Below are positions 1 through 61,937 of a stretch of 64,000 nucleotides of DNA, piece by piece. Each line of letters opens with the position of its first letter. Position 1 is the first letter of the stretch. The notes under the pieces were generated by a model. It ran no database searches. It was not told the origin of the DNA and saw only the letters and a list, made by a program, of their open reading frames with translations. Both the position numbers and the translations under genes were made by a program. The DNA is from Patescibacteria group bacterium (lineage in GTDB: Bacteria > Patescibacteriota > UBA1384 > XYA2-FULL-43-10 > 1-14-0-10-43-13). The stretch covers positions 51,635-115,634 of the forward strand of contig JBAYHC010000002.1 of assembly GCA_041666325.1 (NCBI GenBank), read 5' to 3'.

Positions 1-14
1 TTACTGAAACAACT

Positions 15-1115
15 ATGAAATTTGCAATTGATGTTAGAGAAGTGGGCGAAATGAGGGCAGGCAAGGGCTATTACGTTTTTGAGTTAGTAAACCATCTGGC
101 ACAGATCGACCATGAGAATGAGTATGTCCTTTATACCAACAAATCTTTTTTGTGGCAGTTGCCAAAGAACTTCTCATTAAAAGTAGTCTTGGGCAGATCA
201 ATCATGTGGCACAAGCGGCTCGCCAGCCAAATGGAAAAAGATTCAATTAATGCGTTTCTGTCAACATTGAGTTATTTGAGTGCACTTTTTTCGAGTGTGC
301 CAACCGTTTTGGTGGTCCATGACTTGGCGGTTTTTTATGCCCCAATCAAGAGCAAGCGAAAATCCGTGATCGCCGAAAAGCTCACGCTTAATCGTGCAGC
401 CAAGAGGGCAGAAAGAATAATTGCCGTATCAGAAACGACAAAATCAGAGCTAAATCGCTTCAATCCTTCTTTCGGCGACAAAACAGTGGTGGCACCAAAT
501 GCGGTTTCCGATCGTTTTTGCGTTGCATCGAGGGAAGAGGTAAGCAGTTTTATCCGCTCCCGCGGGTTGCCCGATAAATACATTCTCTTTGTCGGTACGC
601 TAGAACCAAGAAAGGGCATATCCGCACTAATAGGTGCCTACGCACAGCTGGATCAGGAGATACAGGAGGAATATCGATTGATTATTGCCGGCAAGAAGGG
701 ATGGTATTACGAGGAGATATTTGACTTAGTCGGTAAGTTGGGGTTAAAAGAGAGGGTTGGCTTCCCGGGATATATTGCGGAAGATGATTTGCCCCTGCTT
801 TATAATGGTGCATCTCTTTTTGTCTTTCCTAGTGTCTATGAAGGTTTCGGCTTGCCTGTGTTGGAGGCGATGAAGTGTGGCACACCAACCATCACGAGTG
901 ATGCTCCTGCTTTGGTGGAGGTGGGTGATGGGGCAGCGCTGTCTGTGCATGTTGGAGATGTCTCTGGTCTGGCAACCCAGATGCAGAAGGTGCTGACGGA
1001 TAGCGTGTTGTCGCGCTTGATGGTTGAAAAGGGTCTAGAAATTGTGAAAAAATACGACTGGAAAAAGAGCGCAAAGATAACGCTGGATACCTTGATTAGA
1101 GCAGTAAAGCAGTAA
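15..1115 (+). CDS. Glycosyltransferase family 1 (GT4-like)
   Basis: 366-aa ORF; C-terminal GT1 signature ...FVFPSVYEGFGLPVLEAMKCGTPTITSD; first gene of glycan locus. Confidence 0.85.
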   Translation: MKFAIDVREVGEMRAGKGYYVFELVNHLAQIDHENEYVLYTNKSFLWQLPKNFSLKVVLGRSIMWHKRLASQMEKDSINAFLSTLSYLSALFSSVPTVLVVHDLAVFYAPIKSKRKSVIAEKLTLNRAAKRAERIIAVSETTKSELNRFNPSFGDKTVVAPNAVSDRFCVASREEVSSFIRSRGLPDKYILFVGTLEPRKGISALIGAYAQLDQEIQEEYRLIIAGKKGWYYEEIFDLVGKLGLKERVGFPGYIAEDDLPLLYNGASLFVFPSVYEGFGLPVLEAMKCGTPTITSDAPALVEVGDGAALSVHVGDVSGLATQMQKVLTDSVLSRLMVEKGLEIVKKYDWKKSAKITLDTLIRAVKQ

Positions 1116-1250
1116 GGCAGTAGAGCGGTGAGGTGGGTAGGGCAAAGCACTACCTTACAACACTATTGTCTTGTCACTTCATTTCTCTGCTACCTTACAT
1201 CCTTATTGCCTTACAACTCTATTACATTATATTAACGACATAGGAGAGTT

Positions 1251-2501
1251 ATGGAATCGTTGGCATATATACTTCTTTACTTAGTGCCATTTGAGAGAAT
1301 CCCATCAATTGAGATTTTCGGGCTAACGGCAAGATTGAGTACATTTGCAATCTTGGTGTTTGTCTTAATCTTCCTGCCTGGTTTTTTGTACAAGAAAAAA
1401 TATTTACCAATATCATCCATTGATAAATCTATTATTGCATTTCTTCTGATTACTTATTCGTCCATCTTGGTGGCGGAAGATAAAAAGCGGGCGCTGATCG
1501 TTGCTGCTCTCCTAACATTTGTTATCTGTGGCTACTTATTAGTAACCCGTGTGCTGCGCGTAAAATTTAACTTTGAAAAAGTATCCAAGGTGATTATCTG
1601 GTCTGCGTTAGCGACTGCCTTATTTGGCTTTTTCCAGTTCTTTGGCGATAGCCGTTTCGGCTTGCCGGCCAATGTGACGGGACTCATTCCCAGATACACA
1701 AAAGAGATATTGGGTTTTGCCAGAGTCCAATCAGTCGGCATGGAGCCTCTTTACTATGCTAACTTTTTGTTCCTTCCGATTTTTATTCTGTCCAGCCGAA
1801 TCTTGACTGCAGCCAAGAAGCCAGCTGTCTTTGACCTTGTCTCGCTCACAATAGTTTTGTCTGCCTTTATTTTGTCCTTGTCTCGTGGGGCTTATGCTGG
1901 TTTCGCTGCTGGTATTGTTACTCTGATTGCTTTGTTGGTCATCTTTTCTCATCTGAGAAAGCATGCTTGGAAACTGGTAATTGTTGGTTTGGTCGCCTGG
2001 GGGTTGTCTCAGATGGCCGTGCTGGATGTTTCTGGTGGTCAGGGTGTGACAGATTTTACGGAACAGGTGACTGTGCCAGAGAAAACAGCCGGAGCGTCGA
2101 CTAATCCCAGACTAGAGTCATACCGTGAAGCCATCCGGTTGTTCAGAGAAAATCCGATTTTGGGCGTGGGAATCGGCAACTACGGTGTTGTTTCTAAATT
2201 TGAGAAGAATATTGCCGAGGCCGGGTATATTATTGTAAATAACCAATACCTAGAAACTTTAGCAGAAACCGGGATTGTCGGTTTTGTCTCCTTTGCCGTA
2301 CTAATTTTTCTTCTTATCGTCAAGCTGTTTCGCGCCTTGAGGCTCAACAAGGCAAATGCGCCATCCATTGCTCTGACGTTGACCCTCGTCTCGGTTTTGA
2401 CTCAATATAACTTTTTCTCAACTATTTATATTCTATATATTTGGATAGTGGTGGCTCTTATAGAATCGATGCCGATAGCAACAGGGGAAGGGGACAAGTG
2501 A
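1251..2501 (+). CDS. O-antigen ligase / Wzy_C family polytopic membrane protein
   Basis: 416 aa, ~10 predicted TM helices, Wzy_C-like loop motif LSLSRGAYAGFAAG; RBS taggagag upstream of ATG. Confidence 0.6.
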   Translation: MESLAYILLYLVPFERIPSIEIFGLTARLSTFAILVFVLIFLPGFLYKKKYLPISSIDKSIIAFLLITYSSILVAEDKKRALIVAALLTFVICGYLLVTRVLRVKFNFEKVSKVIIWSALATALFGFFQFFGDSRFGLPANVTGLIPRYTKEILGFARVQSVGMEPLYYANFLFLPIFILSSRILTAAKKPAVFDLVSLTIVLSAFILSLSRGAYAGFAAGIVTLIALLVIFSHLRKHAWKLVIVGLVAWGLSQMAVLDVSGGQGVTDFTEQVTVPEKTAGASTNPRLESYREAIRLFRENPILGVGIGNYGVVSKFEKNIAEAGYIIVNNQYLETLAETGIVGFVSFAVLIFLLIVKLFRALRLNKANAPSIALTLTLVSVLTQYNFFSTIYILYIWIVVALIESMPIATGEGDK

Positions 2502-6495: not shown

Positions 6496-6543
6496 GCGTA
6501 ACGTGTGATATTTATGATTGATTTTTTAGGACAGGATTATACT

Positions 6544-7770
6544 ATGAGCAAAATCTTAATTGATGGCAGATTTGTGGGTGTTGGCGAATCAATGACTCGC
6601 TATACTCTGGAAATCCTGCGGGGTGTTTTGGAGCTGGACAAAGAGAATGAGTACACATTGCTCGTTCGGCCGCAGGGATTAGGGGCAATCAATGAATTTT
6701 TTGGTGAATCGGAAATCAAAAGACACGAATCAGGGAGTGACCCTTTTCGAGCCGAGATTAAAGATTCAAGCTTTATGATTCAAGTACTCGACATACCTCA
6801 TTATTCCTTGCCTGAGCAAACAAAGTTGCTGCAATACTTAAATAAAAGCAAGTATGACCTGGTCCACTTTATCCAGTTCAATCACCCTGTCCGCTACAAG
6901 GCGCCCTATGTTGTGACCGTGCACGATTTGACCATGGTGGGCTACTTGCACAGATCGAATCCGCTTAAGCGTTTAGCCTTTGGCAGAGTGATGAAATCTG
7001 CCGTCAGGGATTCAAGGCGGATAATTACCGTTTCTAATACATCTCGTGATGAAATCGTTGAGTATTATCGGATTGACAAGGACAAGATTGATACTGTTTA
7101 CAATGGCATTAATCATGAGCGCTACAATGCCCTGATTGAGGATAAAGAGCTGAAAACTAAACAATTTAGGAAGAAGTACGAGATTGATGGTGATTACTTG
7201 CTCTACACTGGGATGTGGAAAAAGCACAAGAACTTGCTCAGGCTTTTGAAAGCCTTCGAGCAAGTAAAATCCAAAATCCAAAATCCAAAATCCAAAAATA
7301 TAGAAGGCTTGCAACTAGTATTGGTGGGGAAGAAGGACGAGAGCGAGCCAGAGGTGCTTGCTGAAATTAAAAGAATCAACAACCTAAAATCGAAAATCAA
7401 AGATCGAAAATCTATTGTAACGACTGGCTATATCAAAGAAGAAGAGTTGCCGGTGGCCTATGCCGGGGCATTGGCATATGCTATTCCCTCACTCTCTGAG
7501 GGGTTTGGTCTGCCGCCGCTCGAAGCCATGGCTTGTGGTGCGCCTGTTATTTCATCGAATGTTTCCTGTATGCCGGAGGTCTTGGGTGACGCACCGCTTT
7601 ATTTTGATCCTTATGATGTCGATGATATTGCTGGTGCGATAGAACAAACAGTAGAAAGTCGGGAACTAAGGAACGACTTGATTAAGAAGGGGCTGGTCCA
7701 GGCCAAAAAGTACTCATGGGATAAGGCGGCGAGAGAGACGTGGGAAGTGTATAAAAAGTTGCTAGGATAA
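6544..7770 (+). CDS. Glycosyltransferase family 1 (GT4-like) with internal low-complexity K/S-rich linker
   Basis: GT1 signature [23 protein letters not shown]; start taken at MSKILIDG (ORF frame opens 6505); contains heptanucleotide repeat 7266-7293. Confidence 0.85.
7266..7299. repeat. Perfect tandem heptanucleotide repeat (AAAATCC)x4 plus partial copy, inside GT4 CDS
   Basis: Direct reading: aaaatcc aaaatcc aaaatcc aaaatcc aaaaata; encodes [10 protein letters not shown]; second degenerate repeat aaaatcgaaaatcaaagatcgaaaatc at ~7384-7420. Confidence 0.9.
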
Positions 7771-7873
7771 TATTTTATTCTATATGTTAGCTAGTAAGGC
7801 AGTAGGGCAATAAGGAGGTAGAGCACTAAGACTCTGAGTCTCAGTCAGAGTACTTTTTGTGTGGGTATTAAAT

Positions 7874-7913
7874 AAAAAAGACCGGCGGCACCCCAAGAAG
7901 GGGGCGCCACCGG
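7874..7913 (-). terminator. Rho-independent terminator of high-GC lipoprotein gene
   Basis: minus strand: CCGGTGGCGCCCC-cttctt-GGGGTGCCGCCGG followed by TCTTTTTTATTT; immediately downstream of stop at 7939. Confidence 0.7.
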
Positions 7914-7938
7914 CGTGTGTAATCGAACGTGCCAGGAT

Positions 7939-8889
7939 CTACCTGGCGGTGTGAACCTGCATCGGCAGGTGCGGCGGGTCCGCGCTGGCGTTTACCGGCT
8001 GGACCTGCAGCCCGCGTGCGCGGGTGATGACCCGCACCTGGCGGCGGAAGTGGTCATCGGTCCCGACCGTGCCCCACCACAGGTAGACGCCATTGGAGGC
8101 GAACTTCCAGCGGCGGGGCTGGTCCGTGCCTGTCACGGGCGTGGGCTGGGGCAGCGTGCCGCCGACGGGGGTAAAGGCGTACTGGACGCCCTCGGTTACC
8201 TCCGCGTTGGCGGCATCGTAGACCTTGGGCAGGATCTCCTGACCGTTGCCGGCGAGACACTGGTCGCCGAAGAGCGAGAGCTCGTCCGGCGTGGTGTCCT
8301 CCGGATCGTAGCTCCAGAGCTTGAGCAGGTGGGGGCTGACCCGCACCTTGCACGTCAGCTCGAACCTGGCGAAGCGCAGCCCCGAGGCTTCGGTCGGCTT
8401 CACGCCGACGATCAGGTCGTACGTGCCCGCCGCCGGCTTGTAGATGCCCGGGGCGGCCGGTGTGACAACTGTCGTGCCCGAGCTTGTGACCAGCCGGTAA
8501 TCCAAGATGAACTTGTCACTTGGCTGCCCACCGGCAGTTATGTCCTCGATCCAGCTTGCCAGCCACTCGTCTTTGCAGGCCCAGCGGTTGGTGGCGTTGG
8601 CACCCTCGAGCTCGACCCACTTGCCATTGGGGTCGGCGTTGGAGCTGCCGACCCAGAACGGCACTGTCAGCCGATAGATGCGCGTCTCCGGCTCGAGCCG
8701 GAATGAGTTGGCGTTCCGGTCGATGACCGGAGTCACGGTCGTGCCACCCGGCGGGGGCGGGTTGGTGCCGCCACCGGATGACGAACCGTTCCCGTTGGTG
8801 TTGGAGTTGTCGAGGACCGTTCCGCCTCCGCCCCCACAACCGCCAACACCGATACCAGCACACAACACTACCAGCAAAAGGTACCTCAT
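7939..8889 (-). CDS. High-GC (~67%) secreted lipoprotein, unknown function (foreign-composition islet 1)
   Basis: 316 aa; N-terminus MRYLLLVVLCAGIGVGGCGGG = signal peptide with Cys lipobox and Gly/Ser/Pro-rich linker; GC far above flanks; RBS gaaaggaaggga before ATG. Confidence 0.6.
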   Translation of the reverse strand: MRYLLLVVLCAGIGVGGCGGGGGTVLDNSNTNGNGSSSGGGTNPPPPGGTTVTPVIDRNANSFRLEPETRIYRLTVPFWVGSSNADPNGKWVELEGANATNRWACKDEWLASWIEDITAGGQPSDKFILDYRLVTSSGTTVVTPAAPGIYKPAAGTYDLIVGVKPTEASGLRFARFELTCKVRVSPHLLKLWSYDPEDTTPDELSLFGDQCLAGNGQEILPKVYDAANAEVTEGVQYAFTPVGGTLPQPTPVTGTDQPRRWKFASNGVYLWWGTVGTDDHFRRQVRVITRARGLQVQPVNASADPPHLPMQVHTAR

Positions 8890-9051
8890 GATGTGTCCCT
8901 TCCTTTCGTTACGTTTGGATGCTCCTGAACGGGCGGTGAAGTATGTGCTTTTTGCGAATTCCGGCGCCGGTGGAAGCCTCGAGAGGCAGGGCTGGCGTGG
9001 GCGGCTGAAGCAAAAAGGACATACGAGCCAGTGTAAGTAACGTAACTAGCT

Positions 9052-9080
9052 TTTATATCACAAAACGGTACTAATGTCAA
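9052..9080 (-). promoter_or_regulatory. Sigma70-like promoter (TTGACA-17-TATAAA) driving islet-1 lipoprotein gene, ~155-nt GC-rich 5'UTR
   Basis: minus strand reads TTGACAttagtaccgttttgtgaTATAAA; AT-rich promoter abutting GC-rich transcribed region. Confidence 0.5.
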
Positions 9081-28815: not shown

Positions 28816-29742
28816 TTAGGCTCGGGGAGCGCGGTTCGGTGTAGGACGGATCCCATTGACCTCGACGGTAGCCGAGACAGTATGGGCACGCTCCTCGATG
28901 CGCTGTCGCATCCGGTCCAGGGCTTCCTTAATAGCCAAGATGTCCTGATTCGACTGGAACTGTGACAACAAGGTGGCAAGATACTCGATGGCGCCGGTAA
29001 CCTCGGGCACGTCGCCAACGATCTTGGCGAGCCGTGCCAAGATGGCACTCGCCTGGCCGACCGTTTCGACGTTGAGGTTCTCCGGGTCAACCAAGGCGTC
29101 AAGCATCCGCAAACAGGTCGCCGTGTCGGCCGTCTCGATCGAAATGGGTTGGTCAGACACGGGCTGTTGTCTTGGCTGCATAATGGCTGCGACTGCAGCC
29201 TGCACGTCCGGGGCAAATTCCGGCTTGGACTCAGGGGCAATATCAGGTGCTACCAAGGTGGCACAATATCCGTAGTCACTGAGATTGCCATCGTTCCCAT
29301 AAGTCAAACGTGTGAACAATATTCCGCTTGTGTCTCCGTGTCGAAATACAACATAGCTTTGGTCAAACACTGCGCTGCTGAGTGTGCCTTCGTTCAAAAA
29401 GAAGATTCTGATTTGGTTATCTCTGGTTTTGTACCATTGAACAACCGGTAGCCAAGTGGCACGACCGACTTTTTCGGCCTCTTCGACAATCTGTCTTGTT
29501 GCCCTGAACTTGTCCATAGCAGCCAGGACTGCTTTTTCGCCATAATACGCGCCTAAGCCGAAGAGCAGAATCGGTATGCCGTATACAAAAATGTTCATCA
29601 TGTGCAACGAACGAAGGACAAAAAAGATGATTATGCTAGCAACGGCAGCGCAACCAGTTGGTAGCCATCTTGGGGTGGGCTCCGATACCTCACCTGAGCG
29701 GTCTGGGACTTCGATCTCAAGTGGAATACACGGATTACTCAT
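28816..29742 (-). CDS. Hypothetical membrane-anchored protein (2 N-terminal TM, beta-rich middle domain, acidic helical C-terminus)
   Basis: 308 aa; TM segments AAVASIIIFFVL and IFVYGIPILLFGLGAYY; unknown function. Confidence 0.45.
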   Translation of the reverse strand: MSNPCIPLEIEVPDRSGEVSEPTPRWLPTGCAAVASIIIFFVLRSLHMMNIFVYGIPILLFGLGAYYGEKAVLAAMDKFRATRQIVEEAEKVGRATWLPVVQWYKTRDNQIRIFFLNEGTLSSAVFDQSYVVFRHGDTSGILFTRLTYGNDGNLSDYGYCATLVAPDIAPESKPEFAPDVQAAVAAIMQPRQQPVSDQPISIETADTATCLRMLDALVDPENLNVETVGQASAILARLAKIVGDVPEVTGAIEYLATLLSQFQSNQDILAIKEALDRMRQRIEERAHTVSATVEVNGIRPTPNRAPRA

Positions 29743-29904: not shown

Positions 29905-30756
29905 TCAAAAGATGTATCGAACACCCTGTTGGGTCCAGCCGGCAAAGCCGGTGATGTCCTGATTCTCCCAATTGTCGGCATAGTGTATCAGGTGCATTTT
30001 GCCTCGGATTTCCGCCGGGAGTGTTTGCAGGTCGGCAAGCGGTGCGTGAACGGCACCGGGGAAGAATTGAACATCGTGGAACATAACACTCGACCTATCA
30101 GCATAGAAGTCAATCAATTGCCGGTCAAAGCGTGTGTCGCAGGAAACGAAGACGTGGCCATCGATAAACAAACCATAGCTCAGGAATGAATCTCCCCATC
30201 CCGTGGAGTTATCCGGGGTATGCATAGTGCGGAAGATCTCCAGATCGATGCCAGCGTAATTGCAGCTGAATATCTCGCGTGGTTGCTGCACTTTCCAGCG
30301 TGGTTGGACGATCGAGAAGTAATCAACGAGTGAGAGCCTTCGGCCGTCTGCTTCCTGCTCATTGTACTCAAGGCCGCCACGCAGCGAGCATTCCCAGAGT
30401 ACACGCTGATATTCAGGGGAAACGATCATCTTGAGTTTGTCTTTGCCAAGCATGCGCCGACCTTTGTAGCGGTTGGCTAAGGCTAACGTTTCGATTCCGC
30501 CTATGTGGTCAGCGTGCGAATGGGTGGGCAAGAGCACCTCAATGTCGGTCGGAGCAAGGTTGGCAGTTTGCCGCAATGCGATCTGGGCCTTCTGGCCAAA
30601 ATCAACCAAGATGTGGGTTTTGCCCTTAATGATAAGGAAATTGGTCTGGAAGTTGCGCTCGGCGTCCGCCGAGCCAACGCCGAGGAAGAAGAGTTCGAGT
30701 TGGCCATCATTTTGAAGACTGTATTTCTCTCCTGGCAACATGCCTCTTGTTTCCAT
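29905..30756 (-). CDS. MBL-fold metallo-hydrolase
   Basis: HxHxDH motif LLPTHSHADHIGG; start ATG 30756 (METRGMLPGEKY) after RBS aaaggga. Confidence 0.7.
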   Translation of the reverse strand: METRGMLPGEKYSLQNDGQLELFFLGVGSADAERNFQTNFLIIKGKTHILVDFGQKAQIALRQTANLAPTDIEVLLPTHSHADHIGGIETLALANRYKGRRMLGKDKLKMIVSPEYQRVLWECSLRGGLEYNEQEADGRRLSLVDYFSIVQPRWKVQQPREIFSCNYAGIDLEIFRTMHTPDNSTGWGDSFLSYGLFIDGHVFVSCDTRFDRQLIDFYADRSSVMFHDVQFFPGAVHAPLADLQTLPAEIRGKMHLIHYADNWENQDITGFAGWTQQGVRYIF

Positions 30757-30864
30757 TGGATGACTCCCTTTCTGTGGGTCAACGTTGAAGCACGCACGAA
30801 CCATACCACAGTGCCACCTAGGTGTCAAATGTAACGCGAAGGAATCGATGATTGACGTGGCCTT

Positions 30865-33696: not shown

Positions 33697-34764
33697 CTAC
33701 GGCTTGAAGAGTGGCCAGCCTATTCCTATTACCACCATGAGTGCGACAAAGGCGCTGATGATGGCTGTTTGGAAGCGTGCGACTGGGTTTGACATCTGGA
33801 CCCAGAATTCAGCGATCTTACCCTTGGGCTGCTTGAGCAGCGGTTTTGGTTCGGGATTGAGCAGGAAGAAGATAAAGCTGCAGATGAGTGAGAAGATAAT
33901 CAACAGTGCCAGGATGGCTCTCCCTCCTATTCTGTGGGAAAACTCTGGTGTCGGCGCTGTGCTAGGGCTGCCTATTCCAGAGAGAACCCCCTGCTTTTTC
34001 ATGGTTTCGATTGTCTGGTTGACCACGAACACGATCTCTTTCTGCCCCATGGGCTCGACAATTCCTGCAAGCTTGCCTGCCTCTCTCTGCTTTCTCATCC
34101 AGCTCAGGAAGGTTTCCTGGTTTGCTCTGCCGCCGAGCGGTTGAGCCTTGATTGCCCTGATCTCCTTCCATGTGTCGCGAATCTGCTCCAGCGCAAACTG
34201 CTGTGTTTGGAGAATGACAGGGGACGAGTATACCACGCGAGTTGCCGGTATGTCTGCAGTGGCTTCGGTGGGTTCGTGTTGAGTAGTATAGGCTTTAGTG
34301 GGAGGGGGGACGACGGGAGCGCTGGGGATTGGTCCGGCAGGACCAGCCTTGGGCAAAGTGTTTTTCGTCAGGGTGCCTCCGGCCAGAGCCGATCTTGGCA
34401 CTCGCTGTTGAGGTGTGGGCAACGCTTGCTGCAGAAGCTTGTTTTGCTCCCTGACAAGCGTGCGTAGCTCTTCGACTTCTGCGCGGTAGCTCCTGATCTC
34501 TAGTTTGAGGTTATCCAGCTCGGTATTTGGCGGGGTCTCGGCGATTGGCGGTGTTGCAGTATTCGGAGCTATTGCGGGCGACGATAGCGCGATTTGGGTC
34601 GTTGAGCCAGTGCTCTCGGGCACAGCTGTTGCAACGACATTTGTTGCCATCGGTGCGGTTGCGGTCAGTAGCGGTTGCTGTGCCTTGGTCGGCACGACTG
34701 CGACGGTCAGGCTGAGCCCGAATGCCGCGATGATTCCTGCTGCTTTGCGTGCGAACGATTTCAT
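33697..34764 (-). CDS. Secreted Pro/Thr/Ala-rich protein with coiled-coil and C-terminal hydrophobic anchor segments (hypothetical)
   Basis: 355 aa; signal peptide MKSFARKAAGIIAAFGLSLTVAVVPTKA; ~57% GC. Confidence 0.5.
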   Translation of the reverse strand: MKSFARKAAGIIAAFGLSLTVAVVPTKAQQPLLTATAPMATNVVATAVPESTGSTTQIALSSPAIAPNTATPPIAETPPNTELDNLKLEIRSYRAEVEELRTLVREQNKLLQQALPTPQQRVPRSALAGGTLTKNTLPKAGPAGPIPSAPVVPPPTKAYTTQHEPTEATADIPATRVVYSSPVILQTQQFALEQIRDTWKEIRAIKAQPLGGRANQETFLSWMRKQREAGKLAGIVEPMGQKEIVFVVNQTIETMKKQGVLSGIGSPSTAPTPEFSHRIGGRAILALLIIFSLICSFIFFLLNPEPKPLLKQPKGKIAEFWVQMSNPVARFQTAIISAFVALMVVIGIGWPLFKP

Positions 34765-48523: not shown

Positions 48524-48549
48524 ATAACGAAAACCCTGCCGCAAGGCGG

Positions 48550-48825
48550 TCAGGGCCGGTGAGAGAACCAGAAGTTCTGAATGCCTGCAATGTAGGCAGT
48601 TGTGTAAAAAACGCAAGCGATCAAGATTCCCCACTGTTTATGCTTAATGGTGGTATAGAACCAGAATGGCTGAGCGGCAAGACCAACAATCGGGCCATAC
48701 TTGTTTTGCTGTCCCAAGAGGAAAACGGAGCTTGCTCCCATCACCATGATGGCAAGCTGAGAAACATTGTCGAATGTAAGCTTTGGCAACCGTAGCCGTC
48801 TCTTTGACTTGTCCAGTCTGGCCAC
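48550..48825 (-). CDS. Hypothetical small membrane protein (3 TM)
   Basis: ORF only; hydrophobic helices. Confidence 0.3.
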   Translation of the reverse strand: MARLDKSKRRLRLPKLTFDNVSQLAIMVMGASSVFLLGQQNKYGPIVGLAAQPFWFYTTIKHKQWGILIACVFYTTAYIAGIQNFWFSHRP

Positions 48826-48948
48826 CTCCTTGTTTTGTCGATCAGTTGCCGGCTAATAATACAAGAAGACATTCACTAAGTCAATTCACTCTGGAGCAAT
48901 ACTTCCTCTTATGTTAAATTCATGATAGGTAATTAATTTTGGACTAAT

Positions 48949-49740
48949 ATGAACAATCTTCGCAAACAAGCGGATGATCATCGCAATAGCGGTCGGGTTA
49001 CAGAGGCGGTGAGGCTTTATGAACAAATCTACGCTACGGAGGATAGTGCTAGCAACTGGCAGTCTGCCGGCGAGGCTCTACAGATGATCGGAGTGAGCTA
49101 TAAGATCAATAACGACACTAAAAATGCTTTGAAATACCTCAAAAGAGCAGTCGACTATTACAAGCGTCATGATATTGAGGTAGGCATAGCCAATGCTCTT
49201 CGCGATATCGGCATAACTTACGAATACATAAACAGGCTAACTTTAGCTGAAGAAAACTTAAGAAAGAGTTTGCTCATCTCAAAAAGAATCAGTGATGACG
49301 AGTCTTGGGGAATTACCCTTGCCAAAATAGGGTTCGTGGAAACGCGCCAGAAAAAATACCGACAGGCAGAAAAGAATCTGAGTGAGGCAGTAATAATCTT
49401 GAAAGGGTCTGGGCGGAACTGGTTCTATACTGCTACGGCCTTGGGTCACTTGGCAAATTTATATATCGAGATTAAGCATTTCGACAGGGCGATCGAGATA
49501 TTAAATGAGTCACTGAAAATGTTTGATGATCATGGCAATGAGGCTCAAACACGCCGCTATGCTCAGGGTTGGGGTCTTTTGGCTTTTGCCTATGCAAATT
49601 TGGGGCAGATTGATAAGGCGAAGGATTTCTTGCATAAATCTCTGCACATTGTCCTGTCGTCCGACTTTTCTCAGAGCGCAGCCGCAGTAGTTCTACGTGA
49701 TATTCGGGCAGATAAGACAATTACTAAACTAATGAAATGA
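48949..49740 (+). CDS. Tetratricopeptide-repeat protein
   Basis: Repeated A/L/Y/G TPR-like periodicity (ALKYLKRAVDYYKRH..., ALRDIGITYEY...). Confidence 0.55.
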   Translation: MNNLRKQADDHRNSGRVTEAVRLYEQIYATEDSASNWQSAGEALQMIGVSYKINNDTKNALKYLKRAVDYYKRHDIEVGIANALRDIGITYEYINRLTLAEENLRKSLLISKRISDDESWGITLAKIGFVETRQKKYRQAEKNLSEAVIILKGSGRNWFYTATALGHLANLYIEIKHFDRAIEILNESLKMFDDHGNEAQTRRYAQGWGLLAFAYANLGQIDKAKDFLHKSLHIVLSSDFSQSAAAVVLRDIRADKTITKLMK

Positions 49741-49830
49741 TCTTGCAACGGTTGACGCAGATTAATTGATGATGGCATACTGGTGTGGTTGTCGTCCCTT
49801 GAACAAGTAGATCTAACTATGAGGTGAGGT

Positions 49831-50250
49831 ATGAGTAAGAGCAGCAAGCGCTATCTCAACATTTTTCGCATGGCGTTTTTCCGTGAGAAATATCGCTTTG
49901 ATCAGGGCAATGCCTTCTTGGTCTTTTTTAACTTTTCTTTGCTTGTGATTTCGGTGGTCAAGCAGTATGGCGGGAGTCAGAGCTCAATTCCGATTTACGT
50001 CACTGCCGGTCTGCTCGGAACCTGGTTTCTTGGTTATGTTCTTGACCGGTTTATCAAAGTTCAGGACGCTCAAGAGCGAGTTGCTCTGAAGCGAAGTCCT
50101 ATTTGGAAGGAGAACTTCGATCGTCAGGATGAGCACAATAAAACATTGCGAGAAGCAATCCAGCGTCTCGAGGACCTTGAAGCCTTAATTCGAGGCGAGA
50201 TTACCGATGATGAGTCGACGTTCTCAGTGGTGGGGAGAAAGCAAGTATAA
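49831..50250 (+). CDS. Hypothetical membrane protein (139 aa)
   Basis: RBS gaggtgaggt before ATG; two hydrophobic helices. Confidence 0.35.
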   Translation: MSKSSKRYLNIFRMAFFREKYRFDQGNAFLVFFNFSLLVISVVKQYGGSQSSIPIYVTAGLLGTWFLGYVLDRFIKVQDAQERVALKRSPIWKENFDRQDEHNKTLREAIQRLEDLEALIRGEITDDESTFSVVGRKQV

Positions 50251-50254
50251 AAAT

Positions 50255-50280
50255 AGCGCGGAACCATGGAGTTCCGCGCT
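50255..50280. terminator. Bidirectional terminator hairpin
   Basis: AGCGCGGAAC-catgga-GTTCCGCGCT perfect 10-bp stem; A-run upstream. Confidence 0.65.
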
Positions 50281-50313
50281 GAGAGATAATGAGCACAGAG
50301 ATTGGCTGTCTAT

Positions 50314-50613
50314 CTAACGACGATAATCATGTCGGAAGAGACAATTCGGTGAACTTTCATTAGTGGTTGGCCAAACTCTTCCGGATTCAATGTGCTTGAT
50401 AAGATTCGGGATGGATTCACTTGCTTCAGCAGGTGAGATATAGCGATAGCTCCGGCTCAGACAAACTTCCGTCTTTTGCCCAGCTTCTGTGACATCGTAA
50501 GCAACAATGTGCCAAACATGATCACGATCAATTGCGGGGATAGGGGGCACTTCTCGGTGTTCAATGAGCAGTTGGAGTCTTATACCCTGCGATGTCGTTG
50601 CTGTTGCGATCAC
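50314..50613 (-). CDS. Hypothetical protein (99 aa)
   Basis: ORF only. Confidence 0.3.
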   Translation of the reverse strand: MIATATTSQGIRLQLLIEHREVPPIPAIDRDHVWHIVAYDVTEAGQKTEVCLSRSYRYISPAEASESIPNLIKHIESGRVWPTTNESSPNCLFRHDYRR

Positions 50614-50874
50614 GGATCTCTCCTTCCAGCTTCCTAGGTGGCCAGGTATGTATTACCTAGCCATCGGAAAGCTGGAAGGGAAGAATTTAAATATTACAAA
50701 AAATCACCGTTTGGCGGTGATTATCTTTGTCTTATAAGGTATTGAACTTAAACCGAAATCACCGCCACGGAGTGGGAGATAGAAGGACGAGCAAGAGATT
50801 TTGGCTGAAGGTATAATTCATTAATCTATATATAATATATTGACCTGTTCTTGTCAAATACTACTTCTTCGGCA

Positions 50875-50900
50875 TAAAAAAGAATGGCCGGGGGCCATTC
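50875..50900 (-). terminator. Rho-independent terminator on minus strand
   Basis: GAATGGCC-ccc-GGCCATTC then TTTTTTAT on minus strand; downstream of minus ORF 50918-51214. Confidence 0.55.
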
Positions 50901-51224
50901 GGGGAGAGTGTAACAACTCAGAGTTGGGAACAGTAGACCGGAAAATCCTCTTGGTGAATACACAAAGTGAGTCTGCGAGTAGATTGGTCTCTTTTGATGA
51001 AGCGATCGGTCGGGCAGAGAACAGCATCACCTTCACTCAGTGAGCGCTGATTGAAAACGTACTCCGGAAACGTATAGGTTTCCCAGGGCAAGCCCAATAT
51101 CCTTTGCCCTTTCTTGGTCTGGGCGCCAACTGTTCCAAGGTAGAAGGCAGATGACGAATTTGCCGGTGTTTTCATCTCAGTAATGTTTATATCACAATCG
51201 ATATATCTAGTCAACGGAAAACCA

Positions 51225-51253
51225 TTGACAAATTAAGCAATTTATGGTAGTAT
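51225..51253 (+). promoter_or_regulatory. Sigma70-like promoter TTGACA-17-TAGTAT for islet-2 lipoprotein
   Basis: TTGACAaattaagcaatttatggTAGTAT. Confidence 0.55.
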
Positions 51254-51307
51254 CTGCGCATCGTCAATCGGGGCATTGGGCCACATTCAGTGAAGGAGGA
51301 AACGGCT

Positions 51308-52108
51308 GTGAAGAGAACATTGTGCGGATTGATGCTTGGTTTCGCTCTGGTGGCGCAGGGGTGCGGTGGCGGGAGCAACAGCCCCGTGGTACCTGCCGCG
51401 ACCGAAGGACGCTTCTTGGTCGCCTTCGAGCAGTACGACGCGCAGATCAGCGACCACGTCACCCCGGTGATTGAGAGCGGTGTCGAGTTCCGTATCGACA
51501 TCGCCGGCCTGTCATCGCCGCGGTCACGGGGAGGGATCGATCCCTCATCTGCCACCTATCGCTGGCTCAAGGATGGCCGGCCGTTCGATCCGGGCATTGT
51601 CGTGACGGCGGGTCAGGAGCGGCGTGGTTGGATGATCGGAATCCCCAACCGGCACGAGGACTTTGGTGACACGGCCTTCCAGGTCGTGGCCGAGATCACC
51701 GACCAGGGGCAGACCTTCATCGCCCGCCGGACCTTCTTCGTCCGGCCCTGGTCCACGGTCAAACCGGCAGCACCGATTCTGCAGACGGATGCCTTCTCGG
51801 GTGACCCGGCCAGGTCGCGCTATTACAACGAGGTCGGGGGCTATTACGTCGGCATTCTGGACGCGAGGATCGACATCCTCAACGGCGGTGGCGCCGAGGG
51901 CGCGCGCGAGGCCAAGGGGCGTGGCCCCGGCGGATCGTACTGGGAGGTATCCACCAATGGCACTCGCTTGCCGCTTACACCAAGCAGGCCGGGCTGGTGG
52001 ACGGTGTCGCTGGTGAGCCCCGGGGGTTACGTTTCCCGGCCGGCTTGGCTCTGGGTCTACGACCCGGCCAACCCGGGGGCAACCCCGCCCGCCCGCCCGG
52101 ATTGGTAG
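51308..52108 (+). CDS. High-GC (~66%) secreted lipoprotein, unknown function (foreign-composition islet 2)
   Basis: GTG start after RBS GAAGGAGG (8-nt spacer); VKRTLCGLMLGFALVAQGCGGGSNS signal peptide with Cys lipobox; alternative GTG at 51290. Confidence 0.6.
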   Translation: MKRTLCGLMLGFALVAQGCGGGSNSPVVPAATEGRFLVAFEQYDAQISDHVTPVIESGVEFRIDIAGLSSPRSRGGIDPSSATYRWLKDGRPFDPGIVVTAGQERRGWMIGIPNRHEDFGDTAFQVVAEITDQGQTFIARRTFFVRPWSTVKPAAPILQTDAFSGDPARSRYYNEVGGYYVGILDARIDILNGGGAEGAREAKGRGPGGSYWEVSTNGTRLPLTPSRPGWWTVSLVSPGGYVSRPAWLWVYDPANPGATPPARPDW

Positions 52109-52128
52109 TTCTGTTTCGCATTCACAAG

Positions 52129-52160
52129 GTCGGGCGCTTCGGCGCCCGACCCGTTTTTTT
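52129..52160 (+). terminator. Rho-independent terminator (UUCG tetraloop)
   Basis: GTCGGGCGC-ttcg-GCGCCCGAC perfect 9-bp GC stem, then CCGTTTTTTT. Confidence 0.85.
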
Positions 52161-52231
52161 ACTTAAACCCTATTCCTTGAGATCTGAGGCTGTATTTGCT
52201 ACTATGAGTGCAAGTCTTTTATCACACAAAT

Positions 52232-53701
52232 ATGAAAAAATTCTACATCACCACTCCAATCTATTATGTTAACGATGTGCCGCACATTGGTCATGCCTAC
52301 ACCACTATTGCGGCCGATGTTTTGGCGCGGTATTACAAGAAAAAACTCGGACCCGACAAGGTCTTCTTTTTGACCGGCACAGATGAACATGGCGCCAAAA
52401 TCGCTGAAGCTGCCAGGAGAGCCGGCAAGGAACCGAGGGAATATGTTGATGAACTTGCCCCGAAGTTTCAAAAGACTTGGGAAAATTTAAATATTGAGTA
52501 CTCTGAATTTTTTCGTACAACTAATCCGTTGCATGAGGAAGCGGTACAGAATTTTGTTCAATGCCTCATGAACAACGGTTATGTTGAAAAACGCAGCTAT
52601 GAAGGGCTTTATTGTATATCATGCGAGCGGTACTACAAGGAAGAGGAGCTAGTTGAGGGGAAGTGCCCGGATCACAAGCGCGAATTAGTCAAGCAGTCTG
52701 AAGACAACTACTTCTTTCTGTTATCAAAGCCTGAAATATCGGAGCAACTTTTAGCAAAAATTGAGAACGGGGAACTAAAGATCGGTCCGGAAAGTCGCAA
52801 GAATGAGGTTGTTAGCAAAATTAAACTGGGCCTTGAGGATGTTAGTATTTCTCGCGCCGGAGTGAAGTGGGGGATACCATTTCCCGGAGACCCCGATCAG
52901 ACAATATACGTTTGGGTGGACGCACTGCTGAACTATTTCACGGCAGAGAAAATTTACTTCAAAAACGGACAACCAACAGATGGGCCAACTGACAACGAAC
53001 AAGCCTCCCCTGTCCTGTGGCCGGCCGATTTACATCTCATGGCCAAGGATATTCTCTGGTTCCATGCCGTCATCTGGCCGGCGATGCTGATTGCTGCCGG
53101 AGAAGAAACTCCAAAAAAAGTTTTTGCTCACGGCTTTTTTACCATCAATGGGACCAAGATGAGCAAGACTTTGGGCAATGTCATCGATCCAAATGAGGCT
53201 GTGACAAAGTTTGGTGCGGATGTTGTTCGCTATTCTCTGCTGCGTGAATTTCCGTTTGGTGAAGATGGCGATATCTCACTGGAGAAGATGCAAGGTCGCT
53301 ATCAGGAGCTCGGCAACAATATCGGTAACCTTTTTCAAAGAACTATCTCTATGATTAATAAGTATGACACCAAGGTTACGAAAACCGAAAACAAAGATGA
53401 GTATGACTACGGACTAGTCGATATGGTTGACAACGTTGTGGATGAGTTGAGATTTGATATGGTTCTTGCTTCAATCGATTCCTATGCAACAATGTGCAAT
53501 ACTTATATTAACGAGCATAAACCATGGGTTTTAGCAGTTTCTGATCCGGAGTTATTAACCAAAGTCTTGAATCGAGTTTTCAATAATCTCTATTCGATCG
53601 TCCTGGCGCTTGAGCCGTTTATGCCCGAAACTGCCAAGAAGATGAACACTCAGCTTGAGACATTGCGGCCGGAGCCGTTGTTTCCCAGACTTGAATCTTA
53701 G
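52232..53701 (+). CDS. metG: Methionyl-tRNA synthetase
   Basis: MKKFYITTPIYYVNDVPHIGHAYTT (HIGH motif), KMSKTLGNVIDP (KMSKS), zinc knuckle CISCERYYKEEELVEGKCPDH. Confidence 0.92.
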   Translation: MKKFYITTPIYYVNDVPHIGHAYTTIAADVLARYYKKKLGPDKVFFLTGTDEHGAKIAEAARRAGKEPREYVDELAPKFQKTWENLNIEYSEFFRTTNPLHEEAVQNFVQCLMNNGYVEKRSYEGLYCISCERYYKEEELVEGKCPDHKRELVKQSEDNYFFLLSKPEISEQLLAKIENGELKIGPESRKNEVVSKIKLGLEDVSISRAGVKWGIPFPGDPDQTIYVWVDALLNYFTAEKIYFKNGQPTDGPTDNEQASPVLWPADLHLMAKDILWFHAVIWPAMLIAAGEETPKKVFAHGFFTINGTKMSKTLGNVIDPNEAVTKFGADVVRYSLLREFPFGEDGDISLEKMQGRYQELGNNIGNLFQRTISMINKYDTKVTKTENKDEYDYGLVDMVDNVVDELRFDMVLASIDSYATMCNTYINEHKPWVLAVSDPELLTKVLNRVFNNLYSIVLALEPFMPETAKKMNTQLETLRPEPLFPRLES

Positions 53702-55525: not shown

Positions 55526-55571
55526 TTGACAAAATGCCTTTTTTGTGCTATACTCGCGAAGTTATCGCGAG
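55526..55571 (+). promoter_or_regulatory. Consensus promoter TTGACA-17-TATACT plus +1 hairpin CTCGCGA-agtta-TCGCGAG for islet-3 operon
   Basis: TTGACAaaatgccttttttgtgcTATACTcgcgaagttatcgcgag. Confidence 0.65.
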
Positions 55572-55599: not shown

Positions 55600-55788
55600 G
55601 TGTTAAAAGTCATGTTGACTATCATCGCCGGTTGGGCGGTGTTCGGCTTTTCGGTTTGGTTCTTTGTCACCAACAAGACGTGGGACATCGGGGGCAACCA
55701 GCTCCTCGCCACGATAATGTTGGCTGCAGCAGGGATACTGCTTGTCATCTTCGGCATCATCGCACTGATCGAAAGGAGACGCCGGTGA
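55600..55788 (+). CDS. Holin-like small membrane protein (62 aa, 2 TM, C-terminal ERRRR), high GC
   Basis: GTG start after RBS gaagggggaag; MLKVMLTIIAGWAVFGFSVWFFVTNKTWDIGGNQLLATIMLAAAGILLVIFGIIALIERRRR; stop TGA overlaps GTG of next gene (GTGA). Confidence 0.45.
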   Translation: MLKVMLTIIAGWAVFGFSVWFFVTNKTWDIGGNQLLATIMLAAAGILLVIFGIIALIERRRR

Positions 55789-56906
55789 GAGGCATTCTGT
55801 GGAAGACGTTCGTTGGATTGTTTGTGTGGCTTGGCGGCAAATTGCCTGGGTGGAAGAAGTCTGCCCGGCAGCAGTACCGCCGTCACGGGGGTGTTATCCG
55901 GGGTTTGGGGTACGCTGCAATCGGTCTGGTTCTTCTGTCTCTGGCCAGTCACTACTTCGGTGATGACCATAAGCAGATGACCAAGAAGTCACACAAGCCG
56001 GGCAGGGTGGCCACACGGCCCGATCACCCGACGAAGCCGGAGTGGCAGACTTCGACGCCAAAGAAGCCGAATCGTACGTGGCGGGAACGGGGTCTGACGA
56101 CGGCGCAATTGCGCCAGATCTACCGCCACCCGCGGGTCCAGCAGGGGCCGCACGGTCCTGAGCTGGTGGGGCAGACCAAGCCCCACCCCAACCCGTGGAA
56201 GCCGACGTCGCGCGGGTTGCTCAGTGGCCTAATCGTCGTCGTCGACCCAGGTCACGGCGGCGTGGATCCCGGCAGCTCCTTCGAGCATGCCGGCGCCGGC
56301 TTCTGGGAATCGGCCTACACATACAGGGCCGCCTACGAGCTCATGCAGCTTCTGCGGGCCAAGGGGGCTACAGTCCACCTGACCTGTTGGAGTGACGTCA
56401 TGACTTTGCCGGAACCGCCGCGGGCCGCTGTCCCCATGCCGCTGCCACGTGACGCCCGAACTATTCGCGAAGGTCTGGCTGTCAGATTGTCGACGCGGGT
56501 GCTCAACGCCCGTATCGACTACGCCGATGACTTGGCTAAGCGGTACGGGGGAAAGAGGGTCCTTTTTGTCTCGCTCCATACTGATTGGGAGAGGCAGGGG
56601 CTTTCCGGCGCTTTCGTCTGCATCAACCCCGGCGAGCCGGCTCCGCTCCTGGCCACGTGCATCGCGGCCGAGCTGGAGCGGAAGAACTACCGCCGGCGCG
56701 ACAACGGCAAGCCGCGTTCCTGCGTCGTGCCTCAGGCGAAGAAGTATGTGCTCTTCGCCGGCAAGACGCCGCAGCGGGTCATCGTCGAGATGGCGACGAC
56801 CACGGCGCCGGCTGACGGCTTCCGTATTCGCTGGGAGCGCAACCGGATGGATCTCCTGAAGACCATCCTGGCGGGGATCGAGAGCTATGCCGCGGAGACG
56901 TGGTGA
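55785..56906 (+). CDS. N-acetylmuramoyl-L-alanine amidase (Amidase_3 family) with N-terminal TM anchor and basic Pro-rich linker, high GC (~63%)
   Basis: GTG start after RBS AAGGAG; catalytic-domain motifs VVVDPGHGGVDPGS, FWESAY, LFVSLHTD; TM segment GLGYAAIGLVLLSLASHYF. Confidence 0.7.
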   Translation: MRGILWKTFVGLFVWLGGKLPGWKKSARQQYRRHGGVIRGLGYAAIGLVLLSLASHYFGDDHKQMTKKSHKPGRVATRPDHPTKPEWQTSTPKKPNRTWRERGLTTAQLRQIYRHPRVQQGPHGPELVGQTKPHPNPWKPTSRGLLSGLIVVVDPGHGGVDPGSSFEHAGAGFWESAYTYRAAYELMQLLRAKGATVHLTCWSDVMTLPEPPRAAVPMPLPRDARTIREGLAVRLSTRVLNARIDYADDLAKRYGGKRVLFVSLHTDWERQGLSGAFVCINPGEPAPLLATCIAAELERKNYRRRDNGKPRSCVVPQAKKYVLFAGKTPQRVIVEMATTTAPADGFRIRWERNRMDLLKTILAGIESYAAETW

Positions 56907-57102
56907 TGAAAGGAGAGATGTTCGTCAAATCCAGGGCCGGCCCTTGCCATGCGCGAGGCCGGCCCGAATTGTTTCGATACGATCTTTGATGTAACATTGC
57001 CTTGCCGGCACGACCAGTGTTGGCAAGCACAGTGTTTCAGAGAGGGGGATCAATCTTTGAGAAGAGAAGAAAAATCGGATCGTCTGCGAAGACGGCATGA
57101 GA

Positions 57103-58061
57103 TAATGGGTTTTCTTGTGCTTTGCACTCTGATTCTACCATTGCTTTTGGTTGTTAGATGGTTCTGGTTGAATATCAAGCAAAGCGAAAAACGTTTGCCA
57201 TCATCTGGGAGCAGAGCTCAGTCCTTGTCCTCTGCCTGGTTACGCTCATTTACGATTCCAATCGAGTGCCACAAACATCTTGATCAGCACATTGTTTCCA
57301 ACGGGCGAGTTCCGGATCTTGGCGAGCGTATGGGCAAAGTGGATAAGCTCAAAAAACTGATCGACCAGCTTTGCGCAGAGAGAGGAATCAGCCCGGAATT
57401 GGCTTATGGTCTTATTCTCCATGAGTCGCATGGCGACGTGTGGAGTGTTGATTTCAAGACCAAGCTCGGCCAGGTTCCGGTGACGCAAGCTCATGTTGGG
57501 CTGGGCCAACTGAGTCAAGATTTTCTGCCGGAAGCGATGCGGGTGGATCCAGCTCGCTTGCGTGCTGCTGACGCGTGGCAGAGGGCGACACTCGATCGCA
57601 TTGCCCGCAAGCAGTGGCCGCCGACTGCGGCGGAACGTGTTTTGCTTAGCAAGTGGGCAGCCCTCGATTTGCGCTTCAATGCCAGATGGAATCTAGAGAA
57701 AACGCTTGATTATGTCAAGCAAAATCTCGAGATAACAGGCAATGAAACACTCGCTATCCTGGCACATTTGCGAGGAACTCGCTATCCATTGTGGTGGGTG
57801 GCGCGTTATCGCTTTGACCATGAACGAGTGCCTTACAACGAGGCTGACCGAATTCGACTTCATCGAACAACTGCGCCATATGTTAAGTCTGAGGGCATTG
57901 ACCTTTTTGACCTGATCGTTGACACGGGAGCCGAGGGCTCTCGCTATCGCAGCGATCGCAAGGCCCAAGTTTATTGCTTTTCTATCCTTGCTTGGAGTGA
58001 GCTATATGCTCGCCATCGCAAAACACTTCGTCCGCCCCGATTCAACGGGGCGGCTTTTTAA
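57103..58061 (+). CDS. Putative lytic-transglycosylase-like (SLT-like) protein with N-terminal TM; hypothetical
   Basis: GLILHESHGD...AHVGLGQLSQDF loosely matches SLT E-S...GLMQ pattern but spacing atypical; start at MGFLVLCTLILPLLLVV. Confidence 0.3.
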
Positions 58062-61851: not shown

Positions 61852-61937
61852 GCTCGGGTGGTGGAATGGTAGACACGCTAGCCTTAGGAGCTAGTGGGGT
61901 AAAACCCGTGGAGGTTCAAGTCCTCTCCCGAGCACCA
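61852..61937 (+). tRNA. tRNA-Leu (anticodon UAG), type II with long variable arm, encoded CCA
   Basis: Acceptor GCTCGGG/CCCGAGC, anticodon stem CTAGC-CTTAGGA-GCTAG (UAG at 34-36), variable arm TGGGGTAAAACCCGTG, T-loop GGAGGTTCAAGTCCTCT, 3' ACCA. Confidence 0.85.

Follow-up and report, generated by a model that had tools for sequence, protein, structure and literature searches.

Flexible genomic islets, either replacement or additive islands, are known to occupy conserved hot spots of syntenic backbones, and variable surface lipoproteins are found in host-dependent bacteria with small genomes such as Mollicutes and Borrelia. For Saccharibacteria, gene transfer from the host to the epibiont has been proposed. 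Independent horizontal gene transfer into mammalian-associated lineages has been discussed (PMC7427843). An island of deviating composition is routinely taken to be foreign, and in epibiotic Patescibacteria to stem from the host. Here we describe islet 2 (positions 51225-52160), a single monocistronic, sharply bounded and GC-rich unit within a stretch of 64,000 nucleotides (contig JBAYHC010000002.1; hereafter the window) from a mid-GC Patescibacteria genome. On balance we favor the reading that islet 2 is an accessory gene of the Patescibacterium itself, belonging to a fast-evolving family of surface lipoproteins that resides in a variable slot and has a long-standing GC excess, so that the default interpretation appears to fail here.

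The source organism is a Berkelbacteria-like Patescibacterium (candidate phyla radiation, CPR), as the guess of a small-genome bacterium in a first-pass annotation of this DNA had anticipated. The best relatives of its methionyl-tRNA synthetase (MetRS, 52229..53701) are encoded by Berkelbacteria-like Patescibacteria metagenome-assembled genomes (MAGs), with 57-68% identity. The mean GC content of the whole window is 47%, and three segments are outliers (~7.9-8.9, 51.3-52.1 and 55.8-56.9 kb; islets 1, 2 and 3, respectively). The coding sequence (CDS) of islet 2, 51308..52108(+), has a GC content of 0.662, with 0.625/0.558/0.801 at the first, second and third codon positions (GC1/GC2/GC3), compared to GC 0.43-0.49 (about 0.46) and GC3 0.43-0.53 (about 0.48) for native genes. 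The order GC3 > GC1 > GC2 in this frame indicates that it is coding. Evaluated in 800-bp windows, islet 2 lies +6.2 standard deviations above the rest of the window (all three islets: +6.2 to +6.6), and its base composition is thus atypical for the recipient (GC 0.66 vs 0.46; z = +6.2). The top 800-bp value outside the islets is 0.576. The GC content drops to 0.30 at 51200-51253 and to 0.36 at 52152-52228, which bears out the earlier description of a block of ~66% GC with AT-rich flanks. The 5' untranslated region (UTR) has a GC content of 0.57, vs 0.41+/-0.09 upstream of native genes. Long antisense open reading frames (ORFs) occur inside the islets, at 7915..8706(+) in islet 1 and 51211..51555(-) in islet 2; their codon-position GC is unfit for coding, and such ORFs are expected to arise where GC-rich DNA is depleted of stop codons.

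Islet 2 is composed of the following parts:

51225..51253 (+): predicted sigma-70-type promoter, TTGACA-17 nt-TAGTAT, with TG present (extended -10) and 10/12 consensus matches
51254..51307 (+): 5' UTR, with Shine-Dalgarno sequence GAAGGAGG at 51292..51299, 8 nt ahead of the GTG at 51308
51308..52108 (+): GTG-start CDS of a 266-aa prolipoprotein (NCBI MFA5927055.1, locus tag WCT32_02805, 'Patescibacteria group bacterium')
51308..51364 (+): signal peptide and lipobox (VKRTLCGLMLGFALVAQG before C), then a GGGS linker; lipidation is predicted at Cys19
51395..51751 (+): conserved family domain (aa ~30-148), predicted from alignments, AlphaFold and Foldseek to be an immunoglobulin (Ig)-like (I-set-like) all-beta sandwich
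51905..52105 (+): C-terminal beta-rich region (aa ~200-266; low-confidence model), with the motif PGWW..(x)..W-L/F-W-V/A-Y-D/N-P common to the homolog P0002
52128..52160 (+): intrinsic terminator, with a hairpin at 52128..52151 (10-bp stem, UUCG loop) and a U7 tract at 52154..52160

The stem of the terminator contains 9 GC pairs, and its folding energy of -23.4 kcal/mol (z = -4.4) was equaled in 0/200 shuffled sequences. With consensus hexamers spaced by 17 nt and a GC hairpin followed by a U-tract, islet 2 has the make-up of a predicted transcription unit. Promoter-like sites were not enriched in a local 8-kb scan around islet 2 (6 found vs 7.2 expected). Over the whole window, 31 sites with at least 10/12 matches were found vs 11.2+/-3.2 expected, and several of them lie directly upstream of native ORF starts; the islet 2 promoter thus appears to be of the genome's own style. 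The unit of promoter, ribosome binding site, lipoprotein gene and terminator that the first-pass annotation reported was hence recovered, whereas the product is 266 aa long according to NCBI and not 267 aa, which is the number of codons including the stop.

The compositional jump is the only observation in favor of an artefact of assembly or binning, in which high-GC reads would have been joined chimerically into a low-GC contig. However, contigs of three sample accessions (ENA assembly ERZ27249449 and the Logan single-run assemblies SRR18595301 and SRR6484324) match this region of the window with 100% identity over 11-21 kb, including the junctions, which renders a chimera or contamination unlikely, as had been argued before. 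Moreover, the islet boundaries fall on promoter, start codon and terminator, and similar gene-bounded islets are present in many independent MAGs. We consider such an artefact hardly credible.

Next, homologs of the islet 2 protein were searched. A word-indexed search of 5.8e9 clusters returned only the protein itself. An exhaustive phmmer (HMMER) search of 1.84e9 (1.84 billion) representatives of about 15e9 proteins revealed four real homologs (P0002, P0003, P0004 and P0006), with 37-47% identity over aa ~30-150; weaker matches were giant proteins with Ig repeats. P0002, P0004 and P0006 have a signal peptide with lipobox followed by a Gly-rich linker, and P0003 is N-terminally truncated at the contig start. 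All four homolog genes are GC-elevated relative to their own flanks (gene/flank: 0.565/0.45, 0.62/0.47, 0.625/0.48 and 0.51/0.38), and gene GC3 across the five family members climbs monotonically with flank GC (0.59, 0.73, 0.79, 0.80 and 0.82). P0002 adjoins nusA in a flank of 0.48 GC and has a promoter and terminator in the style of islet 2; a scan of metagenome contigs with the family profile recovered only this known contig. P0003 is encoded in GCA_964529405.1, the same MAG as locus L005, which carries the closest MetRS relative (68% identity). Together with two neighboring GC-rich lipoprotein genes, it is located where a glycosyltransferase cluster collinear with window positions 1270-7796 ends, which identifies the P0003 locus as the slot occupied by islet 1 in the window:

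L085 (sister MAG GCA_964529405.1), 1..2468: three consecutive GC-rich ORFs (GC 0.58-0.63), namely two lipoprotein genes and P0003

These ORFs adjoin a low-GC (0.33-0.42) glycosyltransferase/Wzy cluster.

The first-pass annotation had explained the islets by genes acquired repeatedly from a donor or host of high GC, and had stated what would speak against this explanation, namely that the closest homologs lie in low-GC relatives and are of similarly high local GC. Exactly such homologs were found for islets 2 and 3. No homolog of the islet 2 protein in a high-GC context is present among the 1.84e9 representatives; its only homologs are located in lower-GC contexts, one of them in the sister MAG, and not in a donor lineage, and word-indexed searches with islets 1 and 3 returned essentially self-matches. 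If foreign genes had recently and recurrently been acquired from high-GC donors, e.g. the host of the epibiont, and placed downstream of native promoters in permissive slots, the atypical GC at every codon position, the sharp boundaries, the presence of the blocks in some but not other close relatives and the exclusively accessory nature of GC-rich genes would be accounted for, and the genome does encode the DNA-uptake protein ComEA. Yet all homologs, at 37-47% identity, are GC-elevated within lower-GC flanks, and their gene GC follows recipient GC. The promoter is native-type, the format of lipobox plus Gly-linker is common to unrelated lipoproteins of the clade, GC-rich ORFs of relatives reach the Pfam threshold in 0/10 cases, unlike ordinary bacterial genes, and the best solved relatives of the islet 3 amidase are from Firmicutes (Cwp6, LytH), not Actinobacteria. 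According to the amelioration argument that follows Lawrence-Ochman logic, acquired genes adapt to the composition of the recipient. Given that synonymous sites should be saturated at 29-47% protein identity, a GC3 imported once would have ameliorated. Given further that the donor is absent from about 15e9 sampled proteins, repeated recent imports of one rare family into several lower-GC genomes are implausible. We thus regard recent, recurrent acquisition from high-GC donors as unlikely.

The gene backbone is conserved except for several variable slots, one of which houses islet 2. Across about 25 related loci this backbone comprises uvrD, G5/SLT, ksgA, Nramp, TP-methylase, (VTT), metG, eamA, tatD, a variable segment, folD, recG and comEA. 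The variable slots are located between the VTT or TP-methylase gene and metG, between tatD and folD, where the glycosyltransferase cluster ends, and upstream of recG. The slot of islet 2 is:

48524..52228: clade-variable slot of 3.7 kb from the VTT-domain gene to metG, with a 91-aa ORF, a TPR protein, a 139-aa ORF, a 99-aa ORF and islet 2

In the closest relative, L005, the interval from VTT to metG measures 254 bp and that from tatD to folD 25 bp, indicating that the 3.7-kb block with islet 2 and the islet 3 operon are clade-variable insertions in fixed slots, with a patchy presence among close relatives. The same slots are filled by other GC-elevated ORFans in L006, L007, L009, L013 and L030.

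Slots refilled by non-homologous GC-rich ORFans (L006, L007, L009 and L030), as well as family members located at different loci in different genomes, would also fit a GC-richer mobile gene pool, i.e. phage, plasmid or another element, that is restricted to this Patescibacteria clade and delivers cargo into hot-spot slots. The layout of islet 3, which resembles a holin-endolysin lysis cassette, points in the same direction. The borders of islet 2, however, revealed no integrase, adjacent tRNA or Rfam element and repeats only at chance level, the single tRNA of the window being located at 61852; insertion of a mobile element was therefore rejected. Similarly, an origin from phages or plasmids was dismissed, as no matches were found in IMG/VR (conserved domain), GenBank phages (islet 2 protein and amidase) or PLSDB (islet 2 protein), and no PHROG family for islet 2; the only PHROG signal was that of the amidase, at E = 0.007. 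Moreover, each unit consists of one gene with a native promoter. A clade-specific mobile pool is in our view distinctly improbable; taken jointly with an unsampled GC-rich donor, it holds about one third of our confidence.

The other two islets of the window are organized as follows:

7881..9080 (-): islet 1, with the gene of a 316-aa lipoprotein at 7939..8889 (GC 0.66, GC3 0.85) and a terminator at 7914..7881; it follows the glycosyltransferase cluster
near 9080..9052 (-): putative islet 1 promoter TTGACA-17-TATAAA
55526..58061 (+): islet 3 operon filling the tatD-folD slot, with promoter at 55526..55554, three genes and terminator at 58032..58053
55600..55788 (+): islet 3 gene 1, a 62-aa ORF with two transmembrane segments, whose stop overlaps (GTGA) the GTG start of the amidase gene
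55785..56906 (+): islet 3 gene 2, a membrane-anchored Amidase_3 protein (373-aa NCBI call), with GC 0.66 in the catalytic part
56949..58061 (+): islet 3 gene 3, a 370-aa ORFan of near-native GC (0.51)

Of the three lipoprotein units of identical architecture that had been proposed, islets 1 and 2 thus conform, with unrelated proteins in a common architecture, while that at 55.5 kb is an amidase operon of three genes. No homology among islets 1, 2 and 3 was found, islets 1 and 2 sharing only the signal peptide and Gly linker; likewise, nothing beyond these two features is common to islet 1 and the L085 lipoproteins. Word-indexed searches with islet 1 and the amidase returned only the query proteins, apart from two weak generic Amidase_3 matches. 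L006 carries a homolog of the amidase in the same tatD-folD slot (29% identity, E = 3e-15; GC 0.57 vs 0.41), and the 370-aa ORF had no clear match to its L006 neighbor. As to the resemblance of the overlapping two-transmembrane ORF and amidase gene to a phage lysis cassette, the sole PHROG signal is an endolysin at E = 0.007, GenBank phages gave no match to the amidase, and no phage genes were recognized among the annotated neighbors. Islet 3 could be a module for cell-wall remodeling or host attack. In most relatives among L004-L020 the tatD-folD interval contains a small antitoxin-like gene together with genes for a cysteine desulfurase (NifS/IscS-like) and a NifU/IscU-like protein, named by eye from their translations; these genes have no homologs at tatD-folD in the window, where the amidase operon is found instead.

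We then compared 430 ORFs of at least 90 aa, encoded in the window and in 29 related loci. An ORF was scored as GC3-elevated if its GC3 exceeded the locus median by > 0.15, as conserved if present in at least 3 loci, and as clade-variable if present in at most 2 other loci. All GC3-elevated ORFs were clade-variable (41/41), while none of the 219 conserved ORFs was elevated (Fisher p = 2e-14). Credible lipobox genes in the related loci were all GC-elevated, and of 10 GC-rich ORFs of relatives tested none reached the Pfam threshold, with one sub-threshold match. In more distant loci (Elusimicrobiota, Chloroflexota) such islets almost never occur. By a crude index, GC-rich ORFs were not significantly associated with N-terminal hydrophobic segments (p = 0.46). 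Expression-linked codon bias was ruled out, as GC3 is only 0.45 for GroEL and 0.53 for EF-P, and GC2 and the UTR are shifted as well. Indeed, a GC2 of 0.52-0.56, an amino-acid composition rich in Gly, Ala, Arg and Pro (GARP) and a GC-rich 5' UTR indicate that the bias is regional and not purely synonymous. A chimeric gene composed of a native signal peptide and a foreign mature part was ruled out too, given that the dip of GC3 at the 5' end is modest (0.65 vs 0.75, 14 genes). The choice between C and G among GC-ending codons correlates with that of native genes (r = 0.82), which we judged non-discriminating because such preferences are widespread.

The islet 2 product is probably exported and surface-exposed, as also suggested in the first-pass annotation. 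Its signal sequence VKRTLCGLMLGFALVAQGC, with VKRTLCGLMLGFALVAQG-C19, satisfies a lipobox rule of the PROSITE type (PS51257): an N-terminal K/R, a hydrophobic h-region, {DERK}(6)-[LIVMFWSTAG](2)-[LIVMFYSTAGCQ]-[AGS]-C, and the Cys at residues 15-35. True lipobox matches within the window were found in islets 1 and 2 only, and the C-GGG(G)S format of islet 2 recurs in islet 1, P0002, P0004 and both L085 lipoproteins. The protein belongs to no curated family in Pfam, NCBIfam or PHROG; its sole NCBIfam match was far below the cut-off (E 0.1, 13 vs 37 bits). The conserved domain contains the motifs RSRGGI, Y-x-W-L-K-D-G and IARRTFFV, with residues such as ARR-x-F invariant in the family alignment, and we take Y-x-W-L-K-D-G to resemble the C-strand motif of I-set domains. 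AlphaFold, based on a shallow family alignment, predicted an all-beta protein, with a confidence score (pLDDT) of 57 for the whole protein and 67 for the conserved domain. With this low-confidence whole model, Foldseek matched tandem Ig-like surface proteins (GhpA, the SGBP-B lipoprotein 6e57, Sap S-layer, intimin/adhesins), and with the conserved domain I-set-type Ig domains (template-modeling (TM) score 0.4-0.5, E at least 8e-3). Over all Ig-like matches of these models (pLDDT 57 and 67), TM scores ranged from 0.2 to 0.5 at 10-17% identity. The protein thus probably has an Ig-like domain and is anchored at the surface by a lipid; judged by its predicted fold class, it likely serves in adhesion or ligand binding at the cell or host interface. 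As for repeats in tandem or of the phase-variation type, a run of CCCG x4 was all that was seen.

According to the reading we favor, the native-type sigma-70 promoter and strong Shine-Dalgarno sequence would drive expression of the 266-aa prolipoprotein, which would be exported, lipid-anchored at Cys19, and display the conserved Ig-like beta-sandwich and the second beta-rich region at the surface. The family would be a very small one, so far confined to lower-GC contigs, with a Berkelbacteria-like Patescibacterium as the one identified genome, and would be shuffled among several variable slots of an otherwise conserved backbone. The 20-point GC excess, being common to every known family member and to the variable genes of the clade generally, would not be the signature of a fresh donor. 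Our preferred guess for its cause, held with low confidence, is a regional fixation bias, e.g. GC-biased gene conversion (gBGC) at recombination-prone slots. gBGC is the nearest known mechanism, but would need to act much more strongly and locally than in any case we know of in bacteria. All available islet copies are 100% identical, and hence lack polymorphism.

Several observations weigh against this reading. The closest relative lacks the blocks of islets 2 and 3 at these slots, and the position of the family differs in the three genomes with known context; gain or transfer events thus certainly occur. GC1, GC2 and GC3 resemble the expectation for a genome of ~65% GC, and we know of no bacterial precedent for a gBGC-driven GC3 shift of +0.3 that is confined to single genes. 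Furthermore, three of the four homolog contigs are no longer than 2.7 kb, so that flank GC derives from little sequence and taxonomy is provisional; the searches with islets 1 and 3 were word-indexed and of lower sensitivity; and the structural models are of low confidence (pLDDT 57-67).

Extended to the whole clade, the favored reading becomes a tentative proposal that we find possible, if rather doubtful: Berkelbacteria-like genomes would keep a compartment of accessory ORFans, including all credible lipoproteins seen, in fixed backbone slots, and a gene- or slot-specific process would hold it 10-20 GC points (GC3 +0.15 to +0.36) above the core over the long term. The islets would then be an endogenous zone of diversification and not foreign DNA. 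Such a process might be gBGC of unusual strength at hot spots of recombination, or mutation by a targeted mechanism.

Further observations concern other parts of the window and its relatives. A fourth, milder GC islet, 33697..34764(-), encodes an ORFan of 355 aa that bears a signal peptide (GC 0.56, GC3 0.62) and is the site of the top non-islet 800-bp GC value. A 307-aa MBL-fold protein (29905..30828(-)) matches the Pfam family Anti-Pycsar Apyc1 (PF23023, E = 8e-27), and is thus a protein of the cyclic-nucleotide phosphodiesterase type in a Patescibacteria chromosome; its gene is adjoined by a membrane ORF (28816..29742) that is GC-rich in part, the GC exceeding 0.6 in a patch at 28933-29250. 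Just past comEA and a tRNA-Leu gene (61852..61937), the gene of a very large, 1997-aa protein of BNR/PSII_BNR/fn3 type begins at ~62108 on the (+) strand and extends beyond the end of the window. In four relatives, the slot just upstream of recG, which is empty in the window, is occupied by a second GC-rich secreted family (21-33% identity; motif DVGT..RT..QAM):

L011 10762-11232, L017 10425-11189, L019 17990-18556 and L036 8344-9057 (-): members of the secreted family upstream of recG

Across the clade, a GC excess marks variable ORFan genes, including every credible lipoprotein gene seen. If endogenous, this pattern would imply a strong and localized GC-raising process in very small genomes, and composition alone would flag likely surface or host-contact genes of uncultured lineages. 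Should the genes derive from an unsampled GC-rich pool, it defines at which sites and in what way such genomes take in new genes. In practice, GC-based filters for the curation of MAGs would wrongly remove these real genes.

A literature search for a described equivalent of a GC-rich, donor-less and clade-wide accessory compartment returned none, and the known systems each match in part. As in flexible genomic islets, conserved genes delimit fixed slots in which variable genes reside, slot contents differ among close relatives, and many products are cell-surface proteins; unlike in those islets, the cargo here is GC-richer than the core by 10-20 points and not AT-richer, and the units have neither mobility genes or repeats nor a detectable donor. 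The transfer proposed for Saccharibacteria likewise involves a Patescibacteria recipient and genes plausibly acting in host interaction, but the closest homologs there point to other phyla, while here they point to lower-GC contigs, including one sister genome, that share the GC excess. The lipoproteins of Mollicutes and Borrelia are similarly lipobox-anchored, fast-evolving and lineage-restricted surface proteins of reduced genomes; multigene phase-variation loci, repeats or invertible promoters are lacking here, and a compositional islet is foreign to those systems. The predicted tandem beta-sandwich is reminiscent of Ig-domain surface proteins (Bacteroides SGBP-B 6e57, intimin, Sap S-layer, GhpA), and the lipid anchor of SGBP-B, with a likeness at the level of the fold only (TM 0.2-0.5, 10-17% identity, low-confidence model) and no membership in a sequence family. 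Lassalle et al. 2015 present gBGC as a source of GC3 heterogeneity within bacterial genomes and compare recombinant with non-recombinant core genes (PMC4450053). Common to their description and ours are a raised GC3 for which optimal codons do not account and an effect that extends beyond synonymous sites; in our case the GC3 shift amounts to +0.23 to +0.36 and is confined to accessory genes. Compared to all these systems, the gene of islet 2 itself is ordinary, i.e. a surface lipoprotein in a flexible slot, whereas a GC-rich, donor-less accessory compartment across a clade is unusual.

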